A stretch of 64,000 nucleotides of DNA. Source: Myxococcales bacterium. GTDB lineage: Bacteria > Myxococcota_A > UBA9160 > UBA4427. A program made the translations under genes and the position numbers. The first letter of the stretch is position 1. Each line of letters begins with the position of its first letter. This document shows positions 8,476-27,183 of the stretch, one piece after another. The stretch lies in NCBI GenBank assembly GCA_012959805.1, contig DUCN01000098.1:69646-133645 (forward strand), given 5' to 3'. The notes beneath the pieces are model-generated. The model searched no databases. It was not told the origin of the DNA and saw only the letters and a list, made by a program, of their open reading frames with translations.

Positions 8476-9527
8476 TCAACTCGGATCGGGTGCGGGCGTA
8501 TTCGGTCCGCTTTCGGAAAGCTCGGGCTCTGCGATATAGACACTGTCCCACTCGCCCGTCAGACTGCCGAGGAACGCAACGATGTCCCCGACTTGAGCCT
8601 CCTCGAGTATCACACCGATCTGATGATGCGACATGATCTTGACCGCGGCTTCAAGGGTCATGATGGAACCGTCGTGGAAATAGGGTCCCGTCTTCGTGAC
8701 ATTTCGCAGCGATGGAACCTTGAAGACATGTCGATCTCCAGCATTGCCGGTGATCTCCTCCCGACCGATGTCTTCCGTGGGAAACGGAATCACGAAACCA
8801 AGCTTGCGATAGATCTGACCGCCGACGGCGGCTCCGGTATGACAGGTATTGCATCCAACGGACAGAAAGGTCGTTAAGCCGCGCTGTTCTGCGGTATCGA
8901 GGGCATCGTAGTCGCCCCCCATGAACGCATCGAAGCGGCCCGGCGTCATCAGGTTCCGCTCGAAGGCACCGATCGCCCGCGCCATATTGTCATAAGTGAG
9001 GCTCGCGCCCGAGGCCTTCTGATCTTCAGGGAACGCATCATCGAAAGCGCTGACATAACCGCGAATTGAAGCCAAGACTACGACCGCGAACTCCTCGGAA
9101 GGAAGTGCCATCTCGATTGGATTGTTCGGCGGGCCCTTCGCCTGCGCCTCGACGTCGGCGGCACGACCATCCCAGAATTGCGCGATATGCATGACGGCGT
9201 TGTAGACGGTGGGTGAGTTTCGGCCACCGCGCTGCCCCCATGTCCCGGGGAGGTCGGCTCATTGTCGACGCCATAGGCATCGGGAAGATGGCAGGAGTTA
9301 CATGCGATGTCGTGGTTCTTCGACAGGCGCTTGTCGTAGTAGAGCATCCGGCCCAGATCGATCTTCGCCTTCGATGCGACGTTCTCCGCATTAGGCACGC
9401 TCGCCGGAAGTGGCCCAAAGATCGAGGCCGCCCGTTCCTACAGCGCGACTGATGCGGGATCGGGCATCTCGACCGACTCGGGCGTCCCGGCACAGGCAGA
9501 ATTCAAGAGAATCAAAGAGACCAACAT
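8476..9527 (-). pseudogene. dihaem cytochrome c peroxidase (CCP/MauG family), disrupted
   Basis: Lipoprotein signal MLVSLILLNSAC. In-frame TAG at 9438-9440. First haem site CNSCH. A +/-1 frameshift at the C5 run 9235-9239 (..SPGHGG / QRGGRNSPTVYNAV..). The rest is intact with FWDGRA and the second haem site CNTCH. The total span matches a ~350-aa CCP. Confidence 0.8.
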
Positions 9528-9924: not shown

Positions 9925-10008
9925 ACCAAACCCGACCCCACGCCGGGTCTCCGCTCCGCGGGCTCTTCGCATGGCGGGAGATTAGGGCGTGTGCAACCCT
10001 CAGCGATC

Positions 10009-11289
10009 ATGTTAGATCCTCGTAGTCTGAAAGACCGACGTTCTGAAATCGTCGAGAGCTGTCGCGCGCGTCACATCGATGCGGATGTCGATGCTGCAAT
10101 CGCGCTCCATCAGCGTGCGAGTGAGGCACGGACCGAACTCAATGAGGCGAATCGCCAGCGAAACGACCATCAGAAGTCCGGCAAGAAGAAGCTCGAGAGC
10201 GACGAAAGAGACGCGCACACCGCTCTCGGCCGCCAGCTCAAACAAGAAGTCACCACCCTCGAAGTCAGGCTTCGGGACATCGAGACCGAGTTCGAGACCG
10301 AACTCCGGCGCCTTCCCAACTACCTGCATCCAGAAACCCCGATCGGAAACGAAGAGGACTGGAAGCTGGTCTCGACCTCGGGTGAGCCCCGCAAATTCGA
10401 CTTCGCGCCCAAGGATCATCTCGTTCTCGCAAACGACCTCGATCTCGTCGACTTCGAAAACGCATCCCGCGTCGCGGGCCAGAAATTCTACTATTTGAAA
10501 CGCGAAGCCGCGCTCCTCGAACTCGCTCTCCAGCGTTTTGCTCTCGACCATGTCATGCCGAATGGTTTCATTCCGATCGTGACACCGGATCTCGCGCGTC
10601 CCGACATCATCGAAGGCCTTGGGTACAGCCCCCGTGGAAAAGAGACACAGATCTACTCGATCGAAAACCATGACCTCTGTTTGATCGGAACTTCCGAAAT
10701 CACGTTAGGCGGAATGTACGCGGATTCGATTTTCTCCGAGGAGGAACTTCCGCTTCGACTGGCCGGTATTTCTCATTGCTTCCGAACCGAGGCCGGCGCT
10801 CATGGTCGCGAGAGCAAGGGTCTCTATCGCGTCCACCAATTTACGAAGATCGAGATGTTTGTCTTTTGTCGCCCCGAGAATTCCGAAGAACATCACGCAG
10901 AGCTGCTGCGGCTCGAACAGGAAATTTTCGACGACCTCGAAATTCCGTACCGCGTCATCGATATCGCCAGTGCCGATCTTGGCGCGCCCGCCTATCGAAA
11001 ATTCGATCTCGAAGCCTGGATGCCCGGGCGGGGGGAAGCCGGCGACTGGGGTGAGATCACGAGCACATCGAATTGCACGGATTTTCAATCGCGCCGGCTG
11101 AAGATTCGTTATCGCCGGACCGGAGAAAAGAAGAAGAACGAGTTCGTCCATATGTTGAACGGCACAGCGATCAGTAATGCCCGAGCGATCGTCGCCTTTC
11201 TCGAAAATCATCAGCAGAGCGATGGCAGTATCACGATCCCCAAGGCGCTGGTTCCTTATATGGGATGCGATCACATCGGGCCGCGCTGA
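10009..11289 (+). CDS. serS: seryl-tRNA synthetase
   Basis: MLDPRSLKDRR start, N-terminal coiled-coil arm, class II motifs (FRTEAG, GTSEITL, NGTAIS..RAIVAFLENHQ). Confidence 0.95.
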   Translation: MLDPRSLKDRRSEIVESCRARHIDADVDAAIALHQRASEARTELNEANRQRNDHQKSGKKKLESDERDAHTALGRQLKQEVTTLEVRLRDIETEFETELRRLPNYLHPETPIGNEEDWKLVSTSGEPRKFDFAPKDHLVLANDLDLVDFENASRVAGQKFYYLKREAALLELALQRFALDHVMPNGFIPIVTPDLARPDIIEGLGYSPRGKETQIYSIENHDLCLIGTSEITLGGMYADSIFSEEELPLRLAGISHCFRTEAGAHGRESKGLYRVHQFTKIEMFVFCRPENSEEHHAELLRLEQEIFDDLEIPYRVIDIASADLGAPAYRKFDLEAWMPGRGEAGDWGEITSTSNCTDFQSRRLKIRYRRTGEKKKNEFVHMLNGTAISNARAIVAFLENHQQSDGSITIPKALVPYMGCDHIGPR

Positions 11290-11307
11290 GCGCCCTGCCC
11301 TTCGCCT

Positions 11308-13251
11308 ATGGCCGCCCCGAAAAGTCTCGTCCTCGGAACCGCCGGACATATCGATCATGGAAAGACCGCACTGGTTCGAGCGCTCACTGGCCGTGATCTC
11401 GACCGACTCCCCGAAGAAAAGGCACGCGGCATCACCATCGAATTGGGATTCGCTCCGCTGGAACTCCGCGATGGGATGCGGCTGGCCGTCGTCGATGTAC
11501 CCGGCCATGAAAAATTCGTACGGACGATGGTGGCCGGCGCAAGCGGACTCGATCTACTCATGCTCGTCGTCGCCGCGGATGAAGGCGTCATGCCCCAGAC
11601 CCGCGAACATCTGGCCATCTGTGAACTCTTGGGGATCCGGCGTGGGCTCGTCGTCCTGACCAAATCTGACCTCGTGGACGATGAAGAGATGCTCGAACTC
11701 GCCGCCGAAGAAGTTCGAGACGTGCTTGCGGGCGGACCGCTCGCCGATCTCGAGATCATCCCCGCGAGCGCACAAACCCATGCCGGGATCGACACGATTC
11801 GATCGGCCCTCGAAGAGCTGATCCGCACAGCGCCGGACCGCGCTGATGATGACCGCCCCTCCCGACTCTTCGTCGATCGCAGCTTCACCAAACATGGCTT
11901 CGGAACCGTCATCACGGGAACCTGGTCCGGACGGCCACGCCGTATCGGTGACACCGTCGTCCTTGAACCAGGCGGCCGAAAAGCCAAGATCCGCGGTCTC
12001 GAGCGACATGGTGAGTCGATCGAGCAAGCTGTTTCCGGAGCCCGGATTGCGGTCAATCTTCAAGGCGAGGCCCGAGACGAGATTCACCGCGGAGATTTGT
12101 TGACGGAGCAGGGCGCTCTTCTCGAAACCGAAACCTTCGATGCCAGCGTGCGCTGGATGGCGAACAATAACAGCCTCAGCGACCAGATCTCAGTCGAGTT
12201 ATTATGCGGCACAGCGGAGCGCCGGGCACGCATCGCCCCGATCGGAGACAAGCCGATCGCACCTGGCGATGACGGTTACGTACGCATTCAAATCGACGGA
12301 CCTCCCCTGGCGCTGCTTCCCGGGGATCGCTTCGTGCTGCGCGGCTTCGCACGCGATGCCGGAGTCGGCTCGACACTCGGCGGCGGTATCGCCCTGGACG
12401 TCGCCCCGCCCCATCGCCGTCGGCGCGATGCCGGCCTCATCCGGGATCTCCAACGAATGGCGGAAGACACGCCAGAGGAGGCGCTTGAAGTTCGTATCGC
12501 TCGCGCGGGCCTCGAAGGCGCACGGTCTGAAAGGCTGGCCAAAGAAACCGGCATGGACCTCGAGCGGCTACATGGCGTCCTAGACCAACTCGAATCAGCG
12601 AATCTGATCGCGCGCCTCGATCCATCCACTTCCATCTCGTCACATGCAGCCGACCGACTCACCCAAGACCTCCTCACCGGTCTACGCGAATTCCACGAGC
12701 GCGAACCGCTTCAGCCCGGCATGCCACGTGCGGCACTCGCCGGACGACTGCCGAGCAATACCGCGGGCGAAGCCGGCACCTATTTACTCACTCGCCTCGC
12801 TGCGCAGGGCGAAATCCTGATTCGCGATGAAGTCGTTTGTGCCATGGATTTCAAGTCCTCCCTTAATCCCGTCCAAACAAAGCTCGCCGACCTCCTGCGC
12901 AGCCGTTATGCGGGGGCCGGCCTCGACGCGCCGACGCTTCGATCACTCGCCGATGAACTCGATGAGGAGGCAAGTCGGCTGCGGGAACTCTGTCATTTCC
13001 TCGAACGCGAGGGCAGTCTTGTCGCGGCCCCAGATGAACTCTTCTTCGACCGGGCTGCGATCCTCGCACTCATTGAACGCGTGTTGTCGCATTTTGTGTC
13101 GAATCCAGAACTCGACACGCAGACACTCAAAGCCTTTATTGGAACCAGTCGGCGCACGGCGATGCCGCTGATGGCGCTACTCGATGACCTTCAAATCACG
13201 AGAAGAGACGGCAGTATTCGCAGGCTCCTCAATAAAACGCCGCGCTGGTAA
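11308..13251 (+). CDS. selB: selenocysteine-specific translation elongation factor
   Basis: G-domain GHIDHGKT / DVPGHEKF / TKSD, EF-Tu-like domains II-III, and a long C-terminal extension of the winged-helix type. 647 aa. Sits 18 nt after serS. Confidence 0.9.
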   Translation: MAAPKSLVLGTAGHIDHGKTALVRALTGRDLDRLPEEKARGITIELGFAPLELRDGMRLAVVDVPGHEKFVRTMVAGASGLDLLMLVVAADEGVMPQTREHLAICELLGIRRGLVVLTKSDLVDDEEMLELAAEEVRDVLAGGPLADLEIIPASAQTHAGIDTIRSALEELIRTAPDRADDDRPSRLFVDRSFTKHGFGTVITGTWSGRPRRIGDTVVLEPGGRKAKIRGLERHGESIEQAVSGARIAVNLQGEARDEIHRGDLLTEQGALLETETFDASVRWMANNNSLSDQISVELLCGTAERRARIAPIGDKPIAPGDDGYVRIQIDGPPLALLPGDRFVLRGFARDAGVGSTLGGGIALDVAPPHRRRRDAGLIRDLQRMAEDTPEEALEVRIARAGLEGARSERLAKETGMDLERLHGVLDQLESANLIARLDPSTSISSHAADRLTQDLLTGLREFHEREPLQPGMPRAALAGRLPSNTAGEAGTYLLTRLAAQGEILIRDEVVCAMDFKSSLNPVQTKLADLLRSRYAGAGLDAPTLRSLADELDEEASRLRELCHFLEREGSLVAAPDELFFDRAAILALIERVLSHFVSNPELDTQTLKAFIGTSRRTAMPLMALLDDLQITRRDGSIRRLLNKTPRW

Positions 13252-13285: not shown

Positions 13286-14752
13286 TCATCGGACGACGCG
13301 AAGACTGGCCACCGCCGCCTCGATCGAATCGAATAGAACATCGGCAACGCCTTCAATGCGAAAAACCGGAGCAATTCCGAAATAGAGGATGGCCGCCGCG
13401 CACAGCGCGAGCACGAACTGTTCATTGCTCAGCGCTCGACTCTTGGCCGATTCGTCCGCGGCTGGACGCAACATCGCGAGCAGAGGGCGGCCAACCGCGG
13501 TCAGTGCGAGAACGGTCCCCGCCAATCCGGCAAAGAGTAGAACGCGATGCCCCCCATGTTCGAGAGCAGAGAGGATCTCGACGCGCGCGACGAATCCGAC
13601 TGTGCCTGGAAAGCCGCCGAGGGAAAGCAGGAAGAGTGCGAGCAGCGCCGCTCGAATCGGGCTCTCCTGCATCATGCCGGCCAGATCCCCCACGTGTTCG
13701 CATGCACGCTCGTGATGACTGAGCGAGGAAAGAATCGCCAGCACACCGACTGCTGAAATACCCGCCGCAAATAACGCCAACAACAAGGCAGGACCACCCG
13801 CGTCCGTCGCTTCGACCAGGGCCAGTGCGAAGAAACCGGCTTGACCAACGCCCAACCAACCGACCAATCGGCGCAGCCCCATCTGCACCTGCGCCATAGC
13901 ATATCCCCAGACAAGGCCAAGACATCCCAATACGGCGAGCAGGCTTGTCAGACGTGTCGCGATCTCGCCGGGAGACAGAATGAAAGATATGCGCAGCAGA
14001 ACGAAAAATGTCGTGGCCTGGAGCGCCATCACGATATGTGCGGTCACGAAACTCGGCGCGCCTTCGTGGACGTCCGGTGACCAGGGATGAAATGGTGCGA
14101 CAACGGCTCGGGCGAGGAGGCCGAGCACGATCAGGGTCACTCCGACATCAAATAACATCGGACGCGCAACCAATTCCAGACTCAGTGAAGAGAGATCGAG
14201 GCTTCCGGTCGCCGCAAACACTAAGGCAACCCCATGGGCGAAGATGATGCTTGCAAGAACATGTGCAAAGAAAGCCTTCAGACTCGACTCGCTCGAAGAC
14301 AAACGTCGTGAATCAATCGAGATCAGCGCGACCACGGGCAGCCAGGCCAGTTCGATCGCGAGCATGAGTCCGAGTAGGTGATCGGAATGAATGGCGGATG
14401 CCATTCCCGCAAGCGAAAAGAGCACAAGGGCAATCGGTTCGGCGGGCCGGGAGCGTGCCATACCGAAATGGGTGAGCGACAGACTCAGAACCAGAAACCC
14501 AGAAAGCAACACGAACGCAACCGCGAAGAATGAGAAGTCGTCGAACATCGCGTCCGTACGGCGAGCGGCCGCCAGACTCGCGGCCAGAGCGAAGACGGCG
14601 ACGGAACCCAAACGAATTCCCGATAGTGCATTGGCTCGGGCAAGATCGCCTTCGACCGGCTGGGAGGCTGGCGAAGGTTGCGACCTCGAGAAGAGATCGA
14701 AGGCCAGCACCGCAAGTGCACCCGCGGCGACGACATGAGCCGGACTCATCAT
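13286..14752 (-). CDS. complex I subunit N-like antiporter-type membrane protein (divergent)
   Basis: Contains AIELAWLP and VAPFHPWSPDVHEGAP (compare the PFH.W.PDVY.GAP of NuoN). About 14 TM helices. 4-nt overlap with the M-like gene. Confidence 0.85.
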   Translation of the reverse strand: MMSPAHVVAAGALAVLAFDLFSRSQPSPASQPVEGDLARANALSGIRLGSVAVFALAASLAAARRTDAMFDDFSFFAVAFVLLSGFLVLSLSLTHFGMARSRPAEPIALVLFSLAGMASAIHSDHLLGLMLAIELAWLPVVALISIDSRRLSSSESSLKAFFAHVLASIIFAHGVALVFAATGSLDLSSLSLELVARPMLFDVGVTLIVLGLLARAVVAPFHPWSPDVHEGAPSFVTAHIVMALQATTFFVLLRISFILSPGEIATRLTSLLAVLGCLGLVWGYAMAQVQMGLRRLVGWLGVGQAGFFALALVEATDAGGPALLLALFAAGISAVGVLAILSSLSHHERACEHVGDLAGMMQESPIRAALLALFLLSLGGFPGTVGFVARVEILSALEHGGHRVLLFAGLAGTVLALTAVGRPLLAMLRPAADESAKSRALSNEQFVLALCAAAILYFGIAPVFRIEGVADVLFDSIEAAVASLRVVR

Positions 14753-16410
14753 TGCCTTCGCCCCATGTCATCGGGTCCCAGACCGATCGTGAGATGGACG
14801 ACCTCGATCTCGATAGCACCTTCATCCCCACCTTCGCCCTCTGAGCCGGTGGGAAGTTTTGGAGTAGCTCGCTGGTCCATCTGATTCAGGATTTCGAGCA
14901 CTGCGGGTTCAACCCGGCGCAAGATCGGATTCGGGTAGACGCCAACGAACACGATGGGAATCGTCATGGCGAGCAGCAGCGTTCGCTCGATGCGATCAAG
15001 ATCGATCAATCCGCGATTACCGGGTTTGTCCACCGGCCCGAGAAAAATCCGGCGCTGAACCCAGAGCAGATAGGAGGCGGCCACCACCATTGCCATCAGC
15101 GTGACGACCGACAATTCCCGCCGCGTCTCGAGACTTCCGAGCAGGACGAAGAGATCCCCGACAAACCCACCCAAAAGCGGCAGCCCTATGAGCGAGAAGA
15201 CCATGACCGCAAAGAAAAACGCGCAGACCGGCATCGGTTTCGCGAGCCCACCGAACGCGGCCACGTCAGTCGTGCCTCGACGCAACGCAAGCGTCCCGAT
15301 CAGGATGAAGAGGCCCGCCGTCGCCACACCATGGGTCAGGAGTTGCACGACTGCACCGGTCAGTCCCTGAACGTTCAAGGTCGAAATACCAAAGACTGCA
15401 AAGCCCACATAACCGACACACGTATACGCGACCAACCTTTTCAACTCTTTCTGGACCAGCGCGATCAGCGAGGCATAAACAAAGGCAACAATCCCGACAA
15501 CAGAAAGTGCAGGGCCTGCTGCGATCGCCGCGTCGGGGAAGAGAGGCAGCGCATAACGAAGAATGCCGAGGGCTGCGGCTTGGACAAATCCCGTTGCCAG
15601 CAGAACCGATAGGCCGGTCGGCGCCGCAGCGTGGGCAGCCGGAAGCCAGAAATGCAGGGGCACCAGGGGGAGGCGTGTCCCGAGCGAAACAGCCAGAACG
15701 AAGAAGAGCCAACCCTGATCCAGTTTCGAAACGCTCACGTCCAGTAGTGAAACACCGCTTGCTCCGGGAATCGCCACCAGGTCAAAGGTCGCCACACCCA
15801 ATTGATCCAGACTCGCCTCGCGAAGAACGAAAGCGACAAAGAGCAGTCCGGCCAGACCGATCGATTCGATCGTCCACATCCGACTCGCAGCGCGCGCGCG
15901 CCCCAGCCCGCCCCATCGCCCCATCCAAAGAAGGATCGGAAGCAGACTCGTGGCCCAGAAGAAGATGAAGGACAAGAAATTCACACTGGTGAAAAGGCCG
16001 AGCAGGCTCGTCTCGAGAAATAAACAGGTCATCACCCAACTACGAACGGACCCCTTGACCTCCCGCTCTGAAGCCAGCATGGCGATTGGTACCAGTCCCG
16101 CGGTCGAGGCCATGAAACAAAGGGCGATTCCGTCGATGCCAAATCGCATTCCTGCGCCGAAGCGATCTCCGAATCCCACGACTTCGACGAATTGGAATCC
16201 GAGCATCTCGGGATCGAATCCGAAAACGAGACCCACCACGACAAGTCCAAACGTCACCAACGTGACCCCCAACCCCAGGGTCCGCCAAACGACTTCGGGC
16301 AGCGAGCGCAGTCCTATGAAATTCAGGAGCAATCCCGTTCCCAGGAGCACGAGCGCGGCGGCCGCCGGTAGCGCCACAATCAATGACAGGATGTGTTCGG
16401 CGTAGTCCAT
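14749..16410 (-). CDS. complex I subunit M-like antiporter-type membrane protein (divergent)
   Basis: PLHFWLPAAHAAAPT and FFWATSLLPILLWMGRWGG align to the NuoM PLH.WLPDAH..APT and FFWE..L.PMY...WG motifs. Confidence 0.85.
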   Translation of the reverse strand: MDYAEHILSLIVALPAAAALVLLGTGLLLNFIGLRSLPEVVWRTLGLGVTLVTFGLVVVGLVFGFDPEMLGFQFVEVVGFGDRFGAGMRFGIDGIALCFMASTAGLVPIAMLASEREVKGSVRSWVMTCLFLETSLLGLFTSVNFLSFIFFWATSLLPILLWMGRWGGLGRARAASRMWTIESIGLAGLLFVAFVLREASLDQLGVATFDLVAIPGASGVSLLDVSVSKLDQGWLFFVLAVSLGTRLPLVPLHFWLPAAHAAAPTGLSVLLATGFVQAAALGILRYALPLFPDAAIAAGPALSVVGIVAFVYASLIALVQKELKRLVAYTCVGYVGFAVFGISTLNVQGLTGAVVQLLTHGVATAGLFILIGTLALRRGTTDVAAFGGLAKPMPVCAFFFAVMVFSLIGLPLLGGFVGDLFVLLGSLETRRELSVVTLMAMVVAASYLLWVQRRIFLGPVDKPGNRGLIDLDRIERTLLLAMTIPIVFVGVYPNPILRRVEPAVLEILNQMDQRATPKLPTGSEGEGGDEGAIEIEVVHLTIGLGPDDMGRRQ

Positions 16411-16444
16411 CAGGATCTCATGGCTCTAAACGCATTCGCCGCGC

Positions 16445-18487
16445 TCATTGCAGCATCCAGCTGACGATGACCAGGACCGTGAGCAGCCCAAGCAGCGCAT
16501 AGCTCTGCAATCGGCCGTTCTGGAGTCGGCGAAGTCCGCTCCAGACGAAGCGACGAGCCAGGCCGGAACCACCGGAAACTACAATGCGATCGATCAACCG
16601 AGTCTCGATGAGGCCAACCAATGCCCAGCGCGAAAGCGCCTTAAGCGGACGGACCAGGACCAGGTCGTAGAATTGTTCGACGAAAAACATTTCGCGCATC
16701 ACGCCTTGCGATAAAAGAACGGCCTGCTGTTTCGATTGTCCCTGGTATCCGCGACGCGCATAACGCCATGCGGCGATGCCTCCGCCCAAAGCAATGCTCA
16801 CGAGCAGCCCGAGAATCAGACGAATCCGAGCAGCACCGAGCAGCAAGGGATCTGGATTGCCAACAAGAGAGCCTGCCATGAAATGACCGACCGAATCCAT
16901 CTGCTCCACGCCCCAGGGACTTCCCCAATATTGCGAAGGCGTGAGAACACCCGCCACGACGGCAATCACCGCAAGCACCGTCAGTCCATGCTGCGTCCAG
17001 CCAACCGGGTCTCGCAATCGTTCTTGCGAAAGACCTCCCTGGCGAACGTTGCCCCAGAAGATCAGGAAGTAGGCGCGTCCCAGCGCAAAAGCCAGAATGC
17101 CGATCGACAGCATAATGGTCATGATCAAAAACCAGCGATCCGGACGCTCGGAAATGGCGATGAATGCCAGAATTTCTTCGATCGAGAAGAAGTTCGAGAA
17201 AGGCGGACATCCGACCAACGCGAGACACCCACCCGCCGCCATCACGTTCGTCCAGCGCATCGTGAGTGCGAGCCCGCCCATCCGACGAATATCGGTTTCA
17301 CCCCGCAAGGTGATCACTACAATTCCCAGAACAAGCAGGAGCTGCGCTTTGATGAAGGCATGAGTGAGGAGCAAAAACGCACCGGCCGAATACGCGCCGA
17401 TGCCTATGCTGATGATCACAAGTCCCAGCAGACTCGATGTCGTATAGGCAATCAATTTCGGCAGAGACCACTGCGCGCTGGCCGCCAGACTGGCCATGAA
17501 CATGGTCAACACCCCGGCGATGACGAGAAACATCCGTGCAATCGGCGCGCTGTCGAGCAGAAAGGAGAAGCGCAACAAGAGATAAACACCCACCACGACG
17601 GTGGTTGCCGATTGCATCAAGGCGTTTGCCGGAATTGGCCCGGCCGACGCGTTCGGAAGCCAAAAATGAAGTGGAAACTGCGCACATTTCGTGAGCGCCG
17701 CGAGCACGAGTCCAATCCCCACGATCTCGAGTAGAAGCGGAGGTGACCCCGCACTCCATTCGAGCCACGCAAGGCCCTGTCCATCAAGCAGGCGGAATGC
17801 CGACTCGATCCCGCGAAAACTGAGCACCGGCGCATTCGCCCGAGACAACCCATCAAAGAGCAGAAGGATCGCGGCAAGAAGTCCTAGGTCGCCGACCCGC
17901 CCCACCACGAAAGTCACGGCACCAGCGCGCGAGGCTGTGCGTTCCTCGTAATCGAAGGAAGCGAAGAGCTGTGAGGCAACACCGACGATCGTCCAGCCCA
18001 GAAAAAGCAGCAGCAAATTGTCGGCCAAAATCAGGACGAGCGTGCCACCGACTAACAAGTCGAGCATGGCAAACATTCGATGCCCCGATTCGGAGGTCAG
18101 CGTCCCATCGCGAAAAAGCCCGATCGTATAGATGTAGACTGTCAATGCGATCAAAGTAATCGCGAGACAGAAAACCGCGGAGAGGGGATCGAGCTGGAAG
18201 GTCAGTTCAGCGCTGAAGCTTCGGCCACCCACACCGCCACCGATCCAGGGGCCGAGACTATCGAGTATCCGCTGACTACGACCGACACCGACAAGATCGA
18301 AGACCGTCAGTACACTGAGGCCGAAGGAGGCGGCGATGGCCGAAAGTGAAATGCCCCAGATCGACCGATCGGTGAGTCTGGCACGAACGAGTCCGATCAA
18401 GAGTCCGTGAGCGACCGCTGCAATAAAGGGCAGAATCGCAATCCAACGGACCATCGAAAACGGAACGCCAACTCCCCATTCGTTCAC
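16445..18487 (-). CDS. complex I subunit L-like antiporter-type membrane protein with C-terminal lateral-helix extension (divergent)
   Basis: ILADNLLLLFLGWTIVG, TKCAQFPLHFWLPNASAGPIP and LTHAFIKA align to NuoL motifs. 680 aa with a long C-terminal extension. Confidence 0.85.
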   Translation of the reverse strand: MNEWGVGVPFSMVRWIAILPFIAAVAHGLLIGLVRARLTDRSIWGISLSAIAASFGLSVLTVFDLVGVGRSQRILDSLGPWIGGGVGGRSFSAELTFQLDPLSAVFCLAITLIALTVYIYTIGLFRDGTLTSESGHRMFAMLDLLVGGTLVLILADNLLLLFLGWTIVGVASQLFASFDYEERTASRAGAVTFVVGRVGDLGLLAAILLLFDGLSRANAPVLSFRGIESAFRLLDGQGLAWLEWSAGSPPLLLEIVGIGLVLAALTKCAQFPLHFWLPNASAGPIPANALMQSATTVVVGVYLLLRFSFLLDSAPIARMFLVIAGVLTMFMASLAASAQWSLPKLIAYTTSSLLGLVIISIGIGAYSAGAFLLLTHAFIKAQLLLVLGIVVITLRGETDIRRMGGLALTMRWTNVMAAGGCLALVGCPPFSNFFSIEEILAFIAISERPDRWFLIMTIMLSIGILAFALGRAYFLIFWGNVRQGGLSQERLRDPVGWTQHGLTVLAVIAVVAGVLTPSQYWGSPWGVEQMDSVGHFMAGSLVGNPDPLLLGAARIRLILGLLVSIALGGGIAAWRYARRGYQGQSKQQAVLLSQGVMREMFFVEQFYDLVLVRPLKALSRWALVGLIETRLIDRIVVSGGSGLARRFVWSGLRRLQNGRLQSYALLGLLTVLVIVSWMLQ

Positions 18488-18501
18488 GAAGCCATAGCCT
18501 C

Positions 18502-18837
18502 CTAGCCTTCCAACAATCCGGCATCATCCGCATCGAGCGTGCCGCGACGCCGGATGCGAGCCATGACGACGCCCAGCCCCACTGCGATTTGCAGACAACA
18601 GATGGTGACGACACCGAGCACCAACACGCCGCTCATCGCCGCTTCGTCAGGCGTCGCCCGACCAAGACCAAAGCCGATGACCACCATTGCCACCGAAACC
18701 CAGGCAAATAGAACACCCACCAGCATCCCGACCAGACTTCTGCGCCAGAGCAGACCCAGCATGCCGATCCAGAAGAGCGCGGCTCCACCGATCACCAACA
18801 CTGAACTCGTCGACGCGATCATTCCAGGCTCACCCAC
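18502..18837 (-). CDS. complex I subunit K-like protein (divergent)
   Basis: 111 aa, 3 TM helices. LFWIGMLGLLWRRSLVGML aligns to NuoK LF.LG..GL..RRNL..ML. C-terminal ..AVGLG..M.R. Confidence 0.75.
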   Translation of the reverse strand: MGEPGMIASTSSVLVIGGAALFWIGMLGLLWRRSLVGMLVGVLFAWVSVAMVVIGFGLGRATPDEAAMSGVLVLGVVTICCLQIAVGLGVVMARIRRRGTLDADDAGLLEG

Positions 18838-19347
18838 CTAGTTGTTCCCCTCGTCGTCCTGAAGCAGCAACATGGTCGCGAGTAGTCCCCCGGCGATCAG
18901 AAACCCCAGTAGCTGCACCAACTCCTGGAGCGGGCCAAAAAGAAGTCGGCCAATGCCCGCTGAATCGATGAGAAAACCATGCGGCGCGAAAGGCGTGAAT
19001 TCGCCGACCGCCGAAACAGAATCGATCAGCAGAGCCAGACCTCCAGCAAGAAACAGAAAGGCGATGGCTCTCGCCAGAGAGGTCGGCCGATCCGTTGCGG
19101 GCAGATGATCCCGATCCACGTCGACTAACATCCAACCAAAGAGCTGAATGATACCGAGCGACAGGGTCGCCAGGATCATGACCGCATGACCGACGAATCC
19201 GGAACCTGCGAAAAGAAGGGTGAAGGCCATCGCCGCGACGAAGACGAAGGCAGCGGCGATCTGACGAGTCAGATTTCGACCCACGACGATCGAAACGAAT
19301 GCCGCAACGAGCGCAATCACGAGGGCGCTGAGCATCGCGATGCTCAT
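18838..19347 (-). CDS. complex I subunit J-like protein (divergent)
   Basis: 169 aa, 5 TM helices. General NuoJ layout, including the C-terminal GRLLFGP...LLGFLIAGGLLA segment. Directly abuts the K-like and H-like genes. Confidence 0.65.
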   Translation of the reverse strand: MSIAMLSALVIALVAAFVSIVVGRNLTRQIAAAFVFVAAMAFTLLFAGSGFVGHAVMILATLSLGIIQLFGWMLVDVDRDHLPATDRPTSLARAIAFLFLAGGLALLIDSVSAVGEFTPFAPHGFLIDSAGIGRLLFGPLQELVQLLGFLIAGGLLATMLLLQDDEGNN

Positions 19348-20616
19348 TTAGCCGCCTCCTAACAGCATCTGCGAGAGCTGGTTAGGAGACCCTTGTACGA
19401 ATAATGAAGTCGCCGAGACCAGAAGAAGGTTCGCCCAGGCCAGCGGAAGGAGACGAAAGGCGACGAGCCGTGTTCGCTGGTCGTCGCGTAGATTCGCCAT
19501 CGATCTGCGAAACATGCCGTCCGCGATGAGAACAAACACGAGCTTTCCAAAGAAGACACCGATCCCAATCCCAACGGCCAGAAAAGCGGGGAGCGCAAAA
19601 CCAACGTGGGGCGCCAAGCGATCGACGACGTCACCGATTCGAAGAAAAGGGATGGCACCTGCGCCGAGAAAGAGTGAAACGAAAAGTGCCGCAGCGAAGA
19701 CTCGGGCGAGGCGCGCCTCCAGCCGCCCCCAATAGAGGTCGACGGGATCATGATCGAGACCAAAGCCAGCAAGGCAGACACTTCCGGTTTCCGGGTTCGC
19801 AACCCAGGACCGCCGAGTCAGCCCATAAAGGGCCAGCCAAAACAACAACGCGGTCAACGGCTGAACGAAAATATTCCATCGCGGCCAGCGGAGATCGCGG
19901 ATCCAATCGAAGACTTGGCCCGACAAGACTTTGGGAAGCCAGAAGAGTGGCGAAAATGTTGAGTTTTGTGCGGCCACAATATTCTGGAGCCGGGCCTCGG
20001 GCTGTGAGGAGGCCGTCATCGCAACGATCTCCGACGCAATCGCTCGATCCGTCAGCCCCGACATGTCCGAAATGGAAGTCACTGCGAGCGGGGCAGTCAC
20101 GAGGATGAGGAGCCCCAGACCGGCCAGGGTTTGGCTCGCAATCCCGACGCTTCCGAGCCGGGACCACGGACTTCGATCCGCCAGTCCGATGCCCACCTGC
20201 GCGAATCCCATCAAGAGGAGCAAGAAGACAATCGCAATCAAACCATGATCGAGATCGGCAACGATCAAAGGACGCCCCGCCGCGCGACCACCCCAGGTTC
20301 CCGCAAAGGGAATCAGAGCAAGTCCACTCGCGAACGCGACGCATGAAATCAATCGGCCGATCCGTCGCAGCCAGGCGGACTGATCAAGCACCCGGGTTCT
20401 CGACCGCACCATCCGAGCGACACCGGCCAGGCCGCGCGCAACCAGGGAAACGACTGGCGGGCGATCCGCATCAAAACCCCAGGCCGCGCGGGGCGCCGAC
20501 CAGCGACCTCGCCTAGTCGAATGGGCGAGTCGACCCCGCCGTTCCAACACAGCGCAGGCGACTAACGCGAGCAACACGATGCCCACCCAGAGGATCGCCA
20601 TCCCCACGCCGATCAT
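19348..20616 (-). CDS. complex I subunit H-like protein (highly divergent, ~100 aa longer than NuoH)
   Basis: Blocks LERR, IVADLDHG, ..WSRLGSVGIASQTL.., FRRSMANLRDDQ...RLLPLAWANLL align to NuoH (GERR, VADLN.G, KYSLLGA.RA.AQTLSYE, R...PR.RYDQ...K..LPL.L.NL). Confidence 0.7.
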   Translation of the reverse strand: MIGVGMAILWVGIVLLALVACAVLERRGRLAHSTRRGRWSAPRAAWGFDADRPPVVSLVARGLAGVARMVRSRTRVLDQSAWLRRIGRLISCVAFASGLALIPFAGTWGGRAAGRPLIVADLDHGLIAIVFLLLLMGFAQVGIGLADRSPWSRLGSVGIASQTLAGLGLLILVTAPLAVTSISDMSGLTDRAIASEIVAMTASSQPEARLQNIVAAQNSTFSPLFWLPKVLSGQVFDWIRDLRWPRWNIFVQPLTALLFWLALYGLTRRSWVANPETGSVCLAGFGLDHDPVDLYWGRLEARLARVFAAALFVSLFLGAGAIPFLRIGDVVDRLAPHVGFALPAFLAVGIGIGVFFGKLVFVLIADGMFRRSMANLRDDQRTRLVAFRLLPLAWANLLLVSATSLFVQGSPNQLSQMLLGGG

Positions 20617-21083
20617 CGCGACGACTCCCGCTGACGTGCGTGCAGCGCAACGACGAAGGTCGGCAAGACGAGCCCGATCGAAACCTGTAGAGCAGACAGT
20701 CCCAGCATTCGAATCGCACTGACACCTGGCAGGACCAGGATCGCGAGAACGCAGACCAGCGCGGTCGTGATCAGGGTTCGATGCTGCAAGACCGCTTGCC
20801 GGGGCGAGCGCAGGGATTTCAGTGAGGAACCAAAGGCGACCGGCTCAAGATCGATCGGATGCCGTGCAGAAGCCGGCAGCTGCCGCCGAATCACCCAGAC
20901 CAGCGCGGGCGTGGTCATCGCACAGACAAGGATCAAGACCAAAAGAGTCAGCCAGCCCAGCGGCGCAAACGAAGCCGTCGCCGGGTCTACATTTTCGATC
21001 ATCGAAGGAAAGGACTCGGCGAGCATCCGTGCCATCCGCGTGCCGTCCGCCAAATCGACGGCGGGGTCATCCTTTGAGGCCAC
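20613..21083 (-). CDS. first gene of the operon: 3-TM membrane protein, tentatively NuoA-like
   Basis: 156 aa with three hydrophobic helices, in the operon position of nuoA. The similarity is weak and the FDVE-type motif is absent. 4-nt overlap with the H-like gene. Confidence 0.45.
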   Translation of the reverse strand: MASKDDPAVDLADGTRMARMLAESFPSMIENVDPATASFAPLGWLTLLVLILVCAMTTPALVWVIRRQLPASARHPIDLEPVAFGSSLKSLRSPRQAVLQHRTLITTALVCVLAILVLPGVSAIRMLGLSALQVSIGLVLPTFVVALHARQRESSR

Positions 21084-21166
21084 TCTGGGGCCCCGAAGGG
21101 AGTCGCAAGAGTAGCCGTAGCCCCCCAGAACGTCAACGAAATTCGGATTCGCGAGTGTGTTCGCAA

Positions 21167-22255
21167 ATGTTTTCGGAAGGCGGTGTCACTGGGGTCGGCG
21201 GTGTTAGAGTCCCCGCCGTGAGTACACCGACCGCAGTTCTCGGCGCCGGCAGCTTCGGCACGTGTCTGGCCATGCTCTGTGCCCGCGCCCACGACGTCAA
21301 ACTCTGGAGCCGGCGTCCCGATGTGGCCGAGGCCATCAATCGAGATCGCCGAAATCCCCGCTATCTCTCCGAATTCGCTTTGCCCGATCGCGTCGAGGCC
21401 ACCGCCGACCTGCGCGACGCACTCGCCGGCCGCGAACTCGTCATCATCGCGGTGCCCAGCCATTCTTTGCGCGAAGTCATGACCGAGGCCGCACCCTTCA
21501 TCGAAGAAGGCGCGATCATCGTCTCGGCGGTCAAGGGCGTCGAGTTTGAAACGGGACTCACCATGAACGGAGTCTTTCGAGAAGTTCTCGACGTTGCACA
21601 CCATCCCCGCCTCGTCGCACTCTCGGGCCCGTCCTTCGCAGCGGAAATTGCCCAACGCCTACCCACCGTAGTGACCGTGGCCTGCCGTGAAGAGGCCTAT
21701 GCCATCTCGGTTCAGGCGACGCTGTCTTGTCCATGGTTTCGCTGTTACACGCATACGGATGTGATCGGGGTGGAGACGGCGGGCGCGCTCAAGAATGTCA
21801 TCGCCATCGCCGTCGGCATGTCCGATGGAACGGACAGCGGACTCAATGCACGGGCCGCCTTGATGACACGCGGACTCGCGGAGATCACGCGAATCGGAGT
21901 GGCCCAGGGTGCGGAAGCGGAAACCTTTCTCGGGCTCTCGGGAATGGGTGATCTCTTGTTGACGTGCACCGGGGACCTCTCCCGAAATCGGCGCGTGGGG
22001 CTCGGCCTTGGACGCGGCCGGAAGCTGGCGGAAATCCAGGCGGAGCTCGGCGAGGTGGCCGAGGGCATTGCAACAACCCGAGCGGCGGTTCGTCTGGCCG
22101 AGCGGCTCCGAGTCGAGGCTCCCATCTGCCAGCTGGTGCGGGCGGTCATCGACGGGGAACGCACGCCCCGCGAAGCGGGGCTATCACTCATGACTCGGCA
22201 GCTGCGAAGTGAGCGGGATCGCGGACCCCGAGTCAGAAAATCCGGTGGCCCATGA
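21167..22255 (+). CDS. gpsA: NAD(P)H-dependent glycerol-3-phosphate dehydrogenase
   Basis: AVLGAGSFGTCLA Rossmann start, RNPRYL, GALKNVIAIA, GDLLLTCTG..SRNRRVG. The ORF-track start at 20822 is an Arg/Pro-rich artefact; a GTG at 21218 is an alternative start. Confidence 0.9.
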   Translation: MFSEGGVTGVGGVRVPAVSTPTAVLGAGSFGTCLAMLCARAHDVKLWSRRPDVAEAINRDRRNPRYLSEFALPDRVEATADLRDALAGRELVIIAVPSHSLREVMTEAAPFIEEGAIIVSAVKGVEFETGLTMNGVFREVLDVAHHPRLVALSGPSFAAEIAQRLPTVVTVACREEAYAISVQATLSCPWFRCYTHTDVIGVETAGALKNVIAIAVGMSDGTDSGLNARAALMTRGLAEITRIGVAQGAEAETFLGLSGMGDLLLTCTGDLSRNRRVGLGLGRGRKLAEIQAELGEVAEGIATTRAAVRLAERLRVEAPICQLVRAVIDGERTPREAGLSLMTRQLRSERDRGPRVRKSGGP

Positions 22256-24778: not shown

Positions 24779-26434
24779 TCATGTGTTCTCCGTCGGCGAA
24801 GAGGCCAGGCGAACTTCCTCGCCCTGCGCGGCCGCCACGATCGCATCCTCCGCACGCGCGAAGATGTGGTCTTCATCCACCGCTCCGGGAGCCACGCCGA
24901 GGCGCGTGAGAAGATCCCTCGGCTCTTCATGCAGCTCGGCGATGTAGATCTCCGTGCCTGCTTCAGTCATTTCTGTGATCAAGTCGGCCAGCGTATAGAC
25001 ACCTGATTGATCGAGATAGCGCACGTCCCCCATGTGCAACACGACGACCCGCGCATCCTTCATCCCACCGAGCTTGCGCTGGAGGGGACCCGCGTTGCCG
25101 AAGAAGAGAGAGCCATGGATTTCCACGACGTAGATCCCCGAGAGCACCTCTTCCGGCGTCTCCAGATCCGGGATCCATGGCCGGTGCGCCGCAATGTCAA
25201 GCAGAGGAGAATGGGTCGCAGGATCAATGTCGCTCAGTCGCTTGAGCAGAATCATACTCGCCATGACCATGCCGACGGCGACCGCCCACATCAAGTCGAC
25301 AAAGACAGTCAGACCGAAAACCGTGAGCATGACCGCCGCGTCGCCACGTGGAGCACGACTAACATGGCCCAGGCCTTTGGTGTCGACAATACCGATGCCG
25401 ACTGTAATCAAGATGCCTGCCAGGACGGCCATTGGGATCTCGGACGCGAGCGGTCCGAGCGCCAACAGGATGGCCAGAAGCAGAACTGAATGAATGATTC
25501 CAGAAAGATGGGTCTCGCCACCGGAACGGACATTGACGACGGTGCGCATCGTGGCGCCGGCGCCGGGCAGACCACCAATCAATCCGGCCACGATATTCCC
25601 GATGCCCTGCCCCATCAGCTCACGTTCGCTGTCGTGACGTGTCTTGGTGACGGCGTCTGCGACGAGTGACGTCAAGAGCGAGTCGATGGCCCCGACAATG
25701 GCCAACATCAGCGCCGGGACCAGGATGATCTGGAACATCTCGAAGTCCCAACCCGGAATGCGCGGGACGGGGAGTCCGCGGGGAATCTCTCCAATGCGCG
25801 GAACTTCGATGCCCAGAAGGACCGAGCCCGCAGTCATGACGATGAGGGCAACCAGCGTACTGGGGACGACTCGAATGAGTCGCGGCGCGGTGTAAATGAT
25901 GCCGATCGTGCATAGGCCGAGGATCAGGGCTGAAGGATTGATATTCTGAAAGGCCTCGGGAATGTGTCGGAGCGCGGCCACCGTACCGCTGGCGGGTTTA
26001 TGCCCGAATAACTGCGCCAGTTGGAGGATGATGACGATCGCCCCGATTCCGCTCATGAAGCCAGAAACCACGGGATAGGGAACGTAATGGATATAGCGGC
26101 CGAGCCTCAGCAGTCCCATCAACACCTGAAGGACTCCAGAGAGCGCAACCATCGCGAAAACCCACGCGATGTCTCCGGTTAGAGCCCCGACGATGCCTGC
26201 GACCACGACGGTCATCGGGCCGGTGGGACCTGAAATCTGGGAAGGCGTTCCACCGAAGAGTGCGGCGAAGAATCCAACCGCAATCGCGCCATAGAGTCCC
26301 GCGGCGGCGCCGTTCTCGACACCCGAAGCAACACCGAAACCCAATGCAAGGGGCAATGCAACGACGCCGGCGGTCACACCACCGAAGATGTCTCCACGCA
26401 AGTTTCCGCAAAACCGCTGGGTGAACGAACTCAT
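24779..26434 (-). CDS. SulP-family inorganic anion transporter with C-terminal STAS domain
   Basis: Typical SulP N-terminus (DIFGGVTAGVVALPLALGFG.ASG), about 12 TM helices, and a STAS tail (VVLHMGDVRYLDQSG). Confidence 0.9.
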   Translation of the reverse strand: MSSFTQRFCGNLRGDIFGGVTAGVVALPLALGFGVASGVENGAAAGLYGAIAVGFFAALFGGTPSQISGPTGPMTVVVAGIVGALTGDIAWVFAMVALSGVLQVLMGLLRLGRYIHYVPYPVVSGFMSGIGAIVIILQLAQLFGHKPASGTVAALRHIPEAFQNINPSALILGLCTIGIIYTAPRLIRVVPSTLVALIVMTAGSVLLGIEVPRIGEIPRGLPVPRIPGWDFEMFQIILVPALMLAIVGAIDSLLTSLVADAVTKTRHDSERELMGQGIGNIVAGLIGGLPGAGATMRTVVNVRSGGETHLSGIIHSVLLLAILLALGPLASEIPMAVLAGILITVGIGIVDTKGLGHVSRAPRGDAAVMLTVFGLTVFVDLMWAVAVGMVMASMILLKRLSDIDPATHSPLLDIAAHRPWIPDLETPEEVLSGIYVVEIHGSLFFGNAGPLQRKLGGMKDARVVVLHMGDVRYLDQSGVYTLADLITEMTEAGTEIYIAELHEEPRDLLTRLGVAPGAVDEDHIFARAEDAIVAAAQGEEVRLASSPTENT

Positions 26435-26502: not shown

Positions 26503-27183
26503 TCATCTGGACCAGGGCAGCCCCTCACCCAGGCCATTCGTGACCTCGTAGAAGCCACCTACGACTTCGATCTCGCCTGCTGCTTTCATTTCCTGCAAGA
26601 CGCCACTTCGTTCGGGAATTGCTTTCGCTCTGCGCCACTCATTTTCCGTCGCGGCGGCGTCGTCAAGCTTTTCGTTGTCGGAGGTGCAGAGCGCAGCATC
26701 GATTGAACCGACAACGCTGTCGACAGCGGGCGCGATCTTTCGAAGCATCCCCGCCAGATGACCGAGTTCGACATTGTCGCAGGCCCCCTTGATGGCGTCG
26801 CAGCGGGAGTGCCCAAGAAGCACAATGTGTTTCGCGCCTGCAATTCGAGAGGCGAAACCCAGGCTGCCGCGAATATCTTCGCTGAGATAAATCCCTGCGA
26901 TCCGGCCGCTGAAGAGTTCGCCTAACCCCTGTTCAAAGAACTGCTCCGTCGATGTGCCTGAACCAATGCAGCTATGGAACGTCGGGGAAGGAAACGAACC
27001 GTCCCTGGTTTCGTTCTCCTGTTGCAAACGATTGCGGTTGGCCTTGAGATTCGCGTTGAAACGCTCGTTGCCCTCGAACTGAATCTCGAGAGCGTCGGCC
27101 GGGGGCAGAGCCTCCGTGATTTCTTCGGTGTGGGCATGCACTTCGCCGTCTCCATTGATCGCGAGGGTGTCCACGCAGGGCAC
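26503..27183 (-). CDS. beta-carbonic-anhydrase-like protein with a non-canonical active site
   Basis: Aligns by eye to beta-CA. Zn ligands are retained (C72, H125, C128 in GHSRCDA), but CSDSR is replaced by CIGSG, so the Asp/Arg dyad is absent. Confidence 0.75.
   Translation of the reverse strand: MPCVDTLAINGDGEVHAHTEEITEALPPADALEIQFEGNERFNANLKANRNRLQQENETRDGSFPSPTFHSCIGSGTSTEQFFEQGLGELFSGRIAGIYLSEDIRGSLGFASRIAGAKHIVLLGHSRCDAIKGACDNVELGHLAGMLRKIAPAVDSVVGSIDAALCTSDNEKLDDAAATENEWRRAKAIPERSGVLQEMKAAGEIEVVGGFYEVTNGLGEGLPWSR

Follow-up and report, generated by a model that had tools for sequence, protein, structure and literature searches.

The operon described here lies in a 64,000-nucleotide stretch of contig DUCN01000098.1 (forward-strand positions 69,646 to 133,645; hereafter the window), which belongs to a metagenome-assembled genome (MAG) of a Myxococcales bacterium. 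It is a seven-gene, minus-strand operon (21083 to 13286) of the layout nuoA-H-J-K-L-M-N-like, in which homologues of the membrane subunits A, H, J, K, L, M and N of complex I are all present and in nuo order. Of the 17 charged-axis positions checked, 13 are changed, or 12 if a conservative Asp-to-Glu change is excluded; the carboxylates that join the quinone site to the membrane arm are also lost, and the replacements are shared across a family of related operons under strong purifying selection. Judging from sequence and from predicted folds, the seven proteins most likely continue to form a membrane arm shaped like that of complex I; it is very unlikely that this rewired arm works as a classical proton pump. 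On balance we lean towards a redox-uncoupled, non-pumping arm that would serve as a structural scaffold, or as no more than a passive conduit. The seven genes are as follows:

20613..21083, minus strand: NuoA-like, 156 amino acids (aa) with three predicted transmembrane (TM) helices; assigned by an hhalign profile match and operon position
19348..20616, minus strand: NuoH-like, 422 aa; PF00146 (E 1.8e-18) and AlphaFold2 (AF2) fold
18838..19347, minus strand: NuoJ-like, 169 aa; family profile match to P. denitrificans NuoJ
18502..18837, minus strand: NuoK-like, 111 aa; PF00420 (E 2.9e-11) and Protein Data Bank (PDB) alignments
16445..18487, minus strand: NuoL-like, 680 aa including a C-terminal extension; PF00361 and PF00662
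14749..16410, minus strand: NuoM-like, 553 aa; PF00361, above the NCBIfam cutoff
13286..14752, minus strand: NuoN-like, 488 aa; PF00361 and PDB-chain alignment

The last four of these genes (K-, L-, M- and N-like) occupy the interval 13286-18837, where the replaced residues were first noticed. Pairwise phmmer alignments were made to PDB chains from E. coli, T. thermophilus, P. denitrificans, M. smegmatis and T. elongatus; they return the same columns that the first-pass annotation had read by eye, and a shift in that eye alignment is ruled out as the cause of the substitutions. In the L-like protein, E144 of E. coli becomes T166 (GWEGVG reads GWTIVG) and K399 becomes I436 (FFSKD reads FFSIE), while K229 is kept as K267 (TKCAQ) and K342 as K380 (AFIKA). 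The M-like protein has all four of its positions altered (E144 to A153, K234 to R246, K265 to Q277 and E407 to D419); the N-like protein keeps E133 (as E134) and has K217, K247 and K395 replaced by R215, Q245 and R390, respectively. Both membrane glutamates of NuoK are gone, with E36 appearing as L43 and E72 as Q83. An additional change, beyond those first listed, is found in TM8 of the L-like protein, where the His of E. coli NuoL (H254, ALIHAAT) is Q292 (ALMQSAT); each of the three antiporter-like subunits therefore has Gln at the centre of TM8. The D400 column of the L-like protein holds E437, the conservative Asp-to-Glu change mentioned above, and the columns of E. coli NuoL H338 and NuoN K158 retain their residues, as H376 and K159, respectively. 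The set that characterises canonical complex I, namely the conserved TM5 Glu, TM7 Lys, TM8 Lys/His and TM12 Lys/Glu together with NuoK E36 and E72, is not preserved as a set.

The replacements are of three chemical kinds. Arg, permanently charged, is found at TM7 in both M and N and also at TM12 in N; Gln, permanently neutral but polar, is found at TM8 in all three antiporter-like subunits and in place of NuoK E72; residues that are apolar or small stand at TM5 in both M and L, at TM12 in L and in place of NuoK E36. In both M and L one acidic and one basic residue appear to have been removed jointly, which would leave the formal charge unchanged; this looks like the neutralisation of buried charge.

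The substitutions are not peculiar to one genome. Orthologous operons were collected from 17 GTDB genomes and from other contigs, all of them from uncultured Myxococcota or 'Deltaproteobacteria' MAGs, a few mislabelled; 15-18 orthologous loci carry identical replacement residues. For the M-like protein, orthologues were found in at least 120 clusters (61-92% identity), and among these R246 is present in 120/120, Q277 in 118/121 and D419 in 121/121, with the TM5 position always small (A, S, G, T or V). E134, K159, R215, Q245 and R390 of the N-like protein are invariant (15/15 loci), as are K267, H376, K380 and E437 of the L-like protein across the orthologous operons, where L has T or A at TM5 and I, L or V at TM12. 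Within the family the E36 site of the K-like protein is L in 12 cases, G in four, F in one and V in one, and the E72 site is Q in 16 and E in two. Two classes of position can be told apart: some are replaced and frozen (R, Q, D, R), and others, namely TM5 in both L and M, TM12 in L and the E36 site in K, are neutralised and vary. The substitutions are shared by the whole family and are not the product of random drift.

Selection on the operon was measured as the ratio of nonsynonymous to synonymous substitution rates (dN/dS) against a 92% identical relative (L025). The values are 0.04 for K, 0.09 for L, 0.10 for M, 0.09 for N, 0.14 for H, 0.19 for J and 0.35 for A; neighbouring gpsA, at 0.09, is at a level comparable to K, L, M and N, which are under purifying selection. 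This is not decay, as the values for these four subunits (0.04-0.10) match that of gpsA, and pseudogenisation was ruled out on the dN/dS values. Identity within the family is 62-65% for L, M and N, equal to the conservation seen in canonical relatives, and is looser for A, H and J, which evolve faster than those three; this is the opposite of the conservation order in canonical relatives. A GC bias behind the Lys-to-Arg changes was considered and rejected: the changes are not compositional, since canonical relatives with a GC content of 0.62-0.66 retain all functional Lys residues and the window stands at 0.594.

Outside L, M and N the changes go further: the H-, A- and J-like proteins show a still greater degree of degeneration than those three. 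Canonical NuoH carries the sequence PFDxPEGESExxAGYxxEYSG in the TM5-6 loop; in the H-like protein this is replaced by WVANPETGSVCLAGFGLDHDPVDL, and most canonical Glu residues of NuoH are lost, including the loop glutamates and most carboxylates of the E-channel. The NuoA-like protein is without the canonical ECG and FDxE carboxylates. The features that canonical complex I requires here (the NuoH TM5-6 loop, the E-channel carboxylates and NuoA FDxE) are thus missing, and with them the channel of carboxylates through NuoH, NuoA and NuoK that couples quinone chemistry to the membrane arm. The H-like proteins form a discrete family of 116 members in a word-indexed search; a profile search of 1.84 billion representatives also detects a second tier of divergent NuoH proteins. 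Roughly 35 representative NuoH clusters near the window family have variously degenerate TM5-6 loops, so that many members of this group appear to have lost the quinone-coupling loop; examples among the representative proteins P0247-P0298 are PFDAGDGPELIGGHRGAYSG and SAGGAPSGPELAAGHRAGWG. A tblastn search of plasmids with the H-like protein gave no match.

Two further features of these subunits were observed. Residues 25-75 of the H-like protein (gene 19348-20616) form a conserved Arg/Pro-rich stretch, ERRxRL...RPxLxPPRAxWGG...ARALAGxARxVRxRTRV, which replaces the N-terminal segment that lines the quinone entry in canonical NuoH and is modelled at low confidence, with an AF2 predicted local distance difference test (pLDDT) score of 57-61. 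The J-like protein has a nearly invariant motif, QLFGWMLVDVDRDH, at residues 68-81, the end of TM3; in comparison with canonical Myxococcota NuoJ, several conserved Asp residues and one His have been gained in this region.

The predicted folds are those of complex I subunits. The AF2 model of the H-like protein (pLDDT 83; predicted template modelling score, pTM, 0.86) has a low-confidence loop at residues 274-287, and its best matches are NdhA, NuoH and ND1, with target-normalised template modelling scores (TM-scores) of 0.7-0.8 at about 17% identity. The M-like model (pLDDT 77, pTM 0.81) best matches NuoM, ND4 and NdhD, with target-normalised TM-scores of 0.82-0.85; in this model R246 is located at the break of TM7, between helices 229-244 and 255-262. 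Alignment of the L-like protein extends to residue 677 of 680 against NdhF and Nqo12, and the lateral-helix region is taken to be present because the alignment reaches the end of both proteins. The Pro/Gly motifs of TM7, TM8, TM11 and TM12 are invariant in the family; those of TM7 and TM12 are the broken-helix motifs.

Subunit identity was assigned on profile scores and on position. The NuoM-like protein is the sole subunit above its curated NCBIfam cutoff (343 vs 263.8); the NuoL-like (351 vs 407.5, TIGR01974), NuoN-like (216 vs 332.6, TIGR01770) and NuoK-like (35 vs 57) proteins fall below theirs, and the NuoH-like protein reaches only 30 bits with its best-scoring NCBIfam NuoH model (NF004744), which has a cutoff of 542 bits. 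Neither the A-like nor the J-like protein has a Pfam or NCBIfam match, and the A-like family profile found no NuoA and nothing significant among PDB sequences. Profile-profile comparison (hhalign) of the A-like protein with NuoA of syntenic Myxococcota operons gave a probability of 94.8% (E 5e-8, 92 columns), and its gene holds the operon position of the PF00507 genes in loci L020-L024; the J-like family profile gives a full-length match to P. denitrificans NuoJ (E 0.005), and the gene holds the position of the PF00499 genes in relatives. The seven frames are intact and are separated by 4-bp overlaps, abutting ends or gaps of 14-34 bp; the A-like and H-like genes overlap by 4 bp and have no gene between them. 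A terminator scan found no internal terminators in the operon beyond chance, and promoter and terminator scans of the operon gave nothing informative. A motif scan and Pfam detected none of nuoB, C, D, E, F, G and I in the operon or in the window. At NCBI, proteins of this operon family are labelled as ordinary Nuo subunits or as hypothetical proteins.

The chromosomal setting indicates where the operon came from. It is flanked by gpsA and feoAB on one side and by selB and serS on the other; the same slot in other Myxococcota holds nuoA-E-F-G-H-J-K-L-M-N (L021, L022, L024 and L028), and these canonical loci keep every canonical Lys and Glu, the NuoH loop, and the NuoA FECGE and FDxE motifs. 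The genes nuoEFG, present in these four loci, are absent from the slot in the window; nuoB, C, D and I are not part of the operon even in the canonical relatives. Because the syntenic slot in relatives holds nuoA-EFG-H-JKLMN with all canonical residues, the window family is the in-place descendant of a real complex I operon. Two gpsA-linked loci are partly reduced: L023 (1844-10942) is nuoA-G-H-JKLMN, having kept nuoG and lost nuoE and nuoF, and L020 (9607-17261) is nuoA-H-JKLMN, in which nuoG is gone as well as nuoE and nuoF; the two loci carry separate partial sets of Lys-to-Arg, Lys-to-Gln and Glu-to-Gln replacements, unlike those of the window family. In a neighbour-joining (NJ) tree of concatenated L, M and N the window family is monophyletic on a long stem, and L020 and L023 group with the canonical loci; degeneration has therefore happened more than once, and the two loci represent independent intermediate states. 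A large, stable radiation is seen only in the window family. The lineage lost nuoEFG from the slot and passed through a burst of change, corresponding to the long stem branch; the charged axis would have been rewired after loss of the NADH module and then settled into a new, tightly conserved state.

Set against canonical complex I (NDH-1), as encoded by the syntenic Myxococcota operons, the window operon shares the seven subunits, their order and their chromosomal slot, as well as the predicted NuoM and NuoH folds, the NuoL C-terminal extension and the broken-helix motifs. It differs in being without nuoEFG, in the replacement of 13 of 17 Lys/Glu/His positions of the axis, and in the loss of the NuoH loop and E-channel carboxylates, NuoA FDxE and the NuoK glutamates; identity between the window family and canonical relatives is 28-35% for L, M and N and 17-25% for A, H, J and K.

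Assembly of the arm is expected because the folds, the NuoL C-terminal extension and the Pro/Gly broken-helix motifs are retained; we infer that redox-driven proton pumping is absent because both the titratable sites and the NuoH/NuoA/NuoK carboxylate channel are lost. In E. coli, the NuoN mutations K247A and K395A nearly abolish complex I activity and pumping (PMC13073174). The favoured reading is thus of a redox-independent module whose axis may be frozen by fixed charges and hydrogen bonds; plausible fixed pairs would join E134 to R215 within N, and D419 of M to K267 of L. The proposal of the first-pass annotation that the arm has no classical Lys/Glu relay is borne out by the fixed substitutions, purifying selection, predicted folds and E. 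coli NuoN mutants; the other half of that proposal, a repurposed scaffold or channel or a different ion chemistry, is what we infer rather than observe.

Several points weigh against the favoured reading. The E. coli NuoN mutation K217R is mild and well tolerated (PMC13073174), and one of the positions now occupied by Arg is the equivalent one. The R, Q, D and R residues of the M/N axis and the broken-helix motifs are invariant, where a pure scaffold would be expected to drift towards apolar residues; the invariant polar replacements hint at a function that still uses a polar axis. Furthermore, the absence of nuoB, C, D and I is ancestral, because the operons of the canonical relatives lack these genes too, and genome-wide loss is not implied. 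It is possible, at a clearly lower level of confidence, that the arm is a new redox-independent membrane machine, in which the invariant Arg/Gln/Asp axis would support a transport or energy-coupling chemistry unseen in complex I or its Mrp relatives; candidates are, for example, anion or Na+ conduction, or a conformational function driven by the proton-motive force.

Membrane arms that stand alone are known from actinobacteria, among them marine actinomycetes (PMC3314556, PMC6676996). A partial NDH-1 operon, nuoA-hyp-H-J-K-L-M-N, has been described in Salinispora, Streptomyces and Kocuria (Penn & Jensen 2012, PMC3314556; also PMC6676996), and was reported as horizontally acquired in Salinispora (PMC3314556). 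The same arrangement is found on conjugative plasmid 1 of Arthrobacter sp. FB24 (NC_008537.1; L026:2761-10790), with a 335-aa hypothetical gene between nuoA and nuoH that has no counterpart in the window operon; similar matches were also seen on plasmids of Gordonia, Rhodococcus, Pseudarthrobacter and Mycobacterium. The Arthrobacter and window operons are both membrane-arm-only, without peripheral-arm genes, and the NuoH TM5-6 loop is degenerate in both (the Arthrobacter loop is RPFDAPAGSDIAGGVLAEAAG). However, the Arthrobacter relay is intact (L with E, K, H, H, K, K and D; M with D, K, K and E; N with K, K and K; K with E and E; NuoA with FDVE), whereas that of the window is replaced; the E133 position of the Arthrobacter plasmid NuoN appears as Leu. 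The actinobacterial arm in Arthrobacter and Salinispora is an additional copy, on a plasmid or acquired, whereas the window operon descends in place from the main operon. The window family is therefore distinct from the actinobacterial partial operons and a more radical variant; in the literature searched, no relay-less or degenerate conserved membrane arm was described, and nothing specific was found on peculiarities of Myxococcota nuo operons.

The Mrp antiporter is the other obvious comparison, as it has stand-alone NuoL/M/N-like and NuoK-like subunits and no redox module. Mrp contains MrpB, E, F and G and lacks both NuoH and NuoA, and its TM5 Glu is retained together with Lys at TM7, TM8 and TM12; the gene set of the window is of Nuo type (NuoH, A and J), and its proteins score far higher against Nuo than against Mrp models or chains. 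An Mrp-type antiporter is ruled out by the subunit set, the scores and the replaced relay residues.

A broader form of the same idea is that the arm is a stand-alone secondary ion transporter with a new ion chemistry, resembling Mrp or the role proposed for the actinobacterial partial nuo operon; this we consider rather unlikely, and the same holds for its specific form, in which a hydrated axis lined by Arg, Gln and Asp would conduct Na+, K+ or an anion, or else protons along a route that does not use Lys. The existence of stand-alone arms in Arthrobacter, Salinispora, Streptomyces and Kocuria is in its favour, as are the invariance of the replaced polar residues and TM7/TM12 motifs, the tightest constraint falling on L, M and N, and the conserved acidic cluster (DVDRDH) gained by the J-like protein. 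The Arthrobacter arm, however, keeps nearly all of the relay Lys and Glu residues that the window family does not, and protons cannot be shuttled by Arg or Gln; no ion-binding motif was identified in the window family. Mrp antiporters also keep the relay Lys and Glu residues, and we know of no antiporter-like subunit that works without titratable residues in TM8 and TM12, both of which count against a transporter.

The arm could instead belong to a working quinone reductase that pumps fewer protons or none, with NuoB, C, D and I (and possibly a further module for electron input) docking to it as products of genes elsewhere in the genome; this is improbable, more so than a transporter. Complex I forms that lack NuoEFG (the 11-subunit type) are known, and since the canonical relatives have nuoB, C, D and I outside the operon these genes could persist elsewhere; the retained NuoH fold in the AF2 model and purifying selection on all seven genes also fit. 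Deletion of nuoEFG from the locus stands against this, as does replacement of the residues that such an enzyme would use, namely the NuoH loop Glu residues, most E-channel carboxylates, NuoA FDxE and both NuoK Glu residues; the H-like protein lies far below its NCBIfam cutoff, and the faster evolution of H, A and J relative to L, M and N reverses the canonical order. Simple decay, in which the operon is a pseudogenising leftover of complex I loss, is barely credible: the different and apparently haphazard degenerations of several related lineages (L020, L023 and the NuoH clusters with degenerate loops) and the high dN/dS of the A-like gene would suit it, but seven intact frames that abut or overlap as in a coupled operon, a dN/dS of 0.04-0.19 in six of the seven genes, and more than 100 sequence clusters that share the same replacement residues do not.

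The genes around the operon were also annotated. The longest open reading frame (ORF) of gpsA (20822-22255, plus strand) starts about 135 codons 5' of the Pfam domains and overlaps the opposite-strand A-like gene; the true start is probably near 21200, which would give a divergent intergenic region of about 130 bp. On the other side, serS and selB, the selenocysteine elongation factor gene (together 9991-13251), adjoin the operon; ARAGORN and Rfam scans of the entire window turned up neither a tRNA (tRNA-Sec included) nor any other RNA family. Directly beside each other on the minus strand are genes for a SulP-family transporter that has a STAS domain (24779-26434) and for a beta-carbonic anhydrase (26503-27183), and the two are a possible pair for bicarbonate uptake and hydration. 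The gene for a di-haem cytochrome c peroxidase (CCP_MauG; 8476-9493, minus strand) appears to be broken into a pair of ORFs that overlap (8476-9192 and 9038-9493); as it is one gene of 387-413 aa in relatives, the split may be due to a frameshift or to an assembly error.

The proton route along the membrane arm of complex I is still debated, and the evidence for it comes largely from single-site mutants. In the family described here, a near-complete titratable axis and the NuoH/NuoA/NuoK carboxylate channel have been replaced in nature, and the genes are nevertheless under selection at a housekeeping level in more than 100 clusters; a non-pumping arm of this kind would separate what the fold requires from what pumping requires. 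The series at one locus is stepwise, from intact, through loss of E and F and loss of E, F and G, to rewired, and the family is a source of ready-made, natural multi-site variants that can be tested in E. coli. As the proteins are annotated as an ordinary NADH-quinone oxidoreductase, metabolic reconstructions of such MAGs probably over-call complex I. If the arm were indeed a new redox-independent machine, it would provide a natural 'relay-less' control for the coupling mechanism of complex I, in a widespread clade of uncultured Myxococcota.

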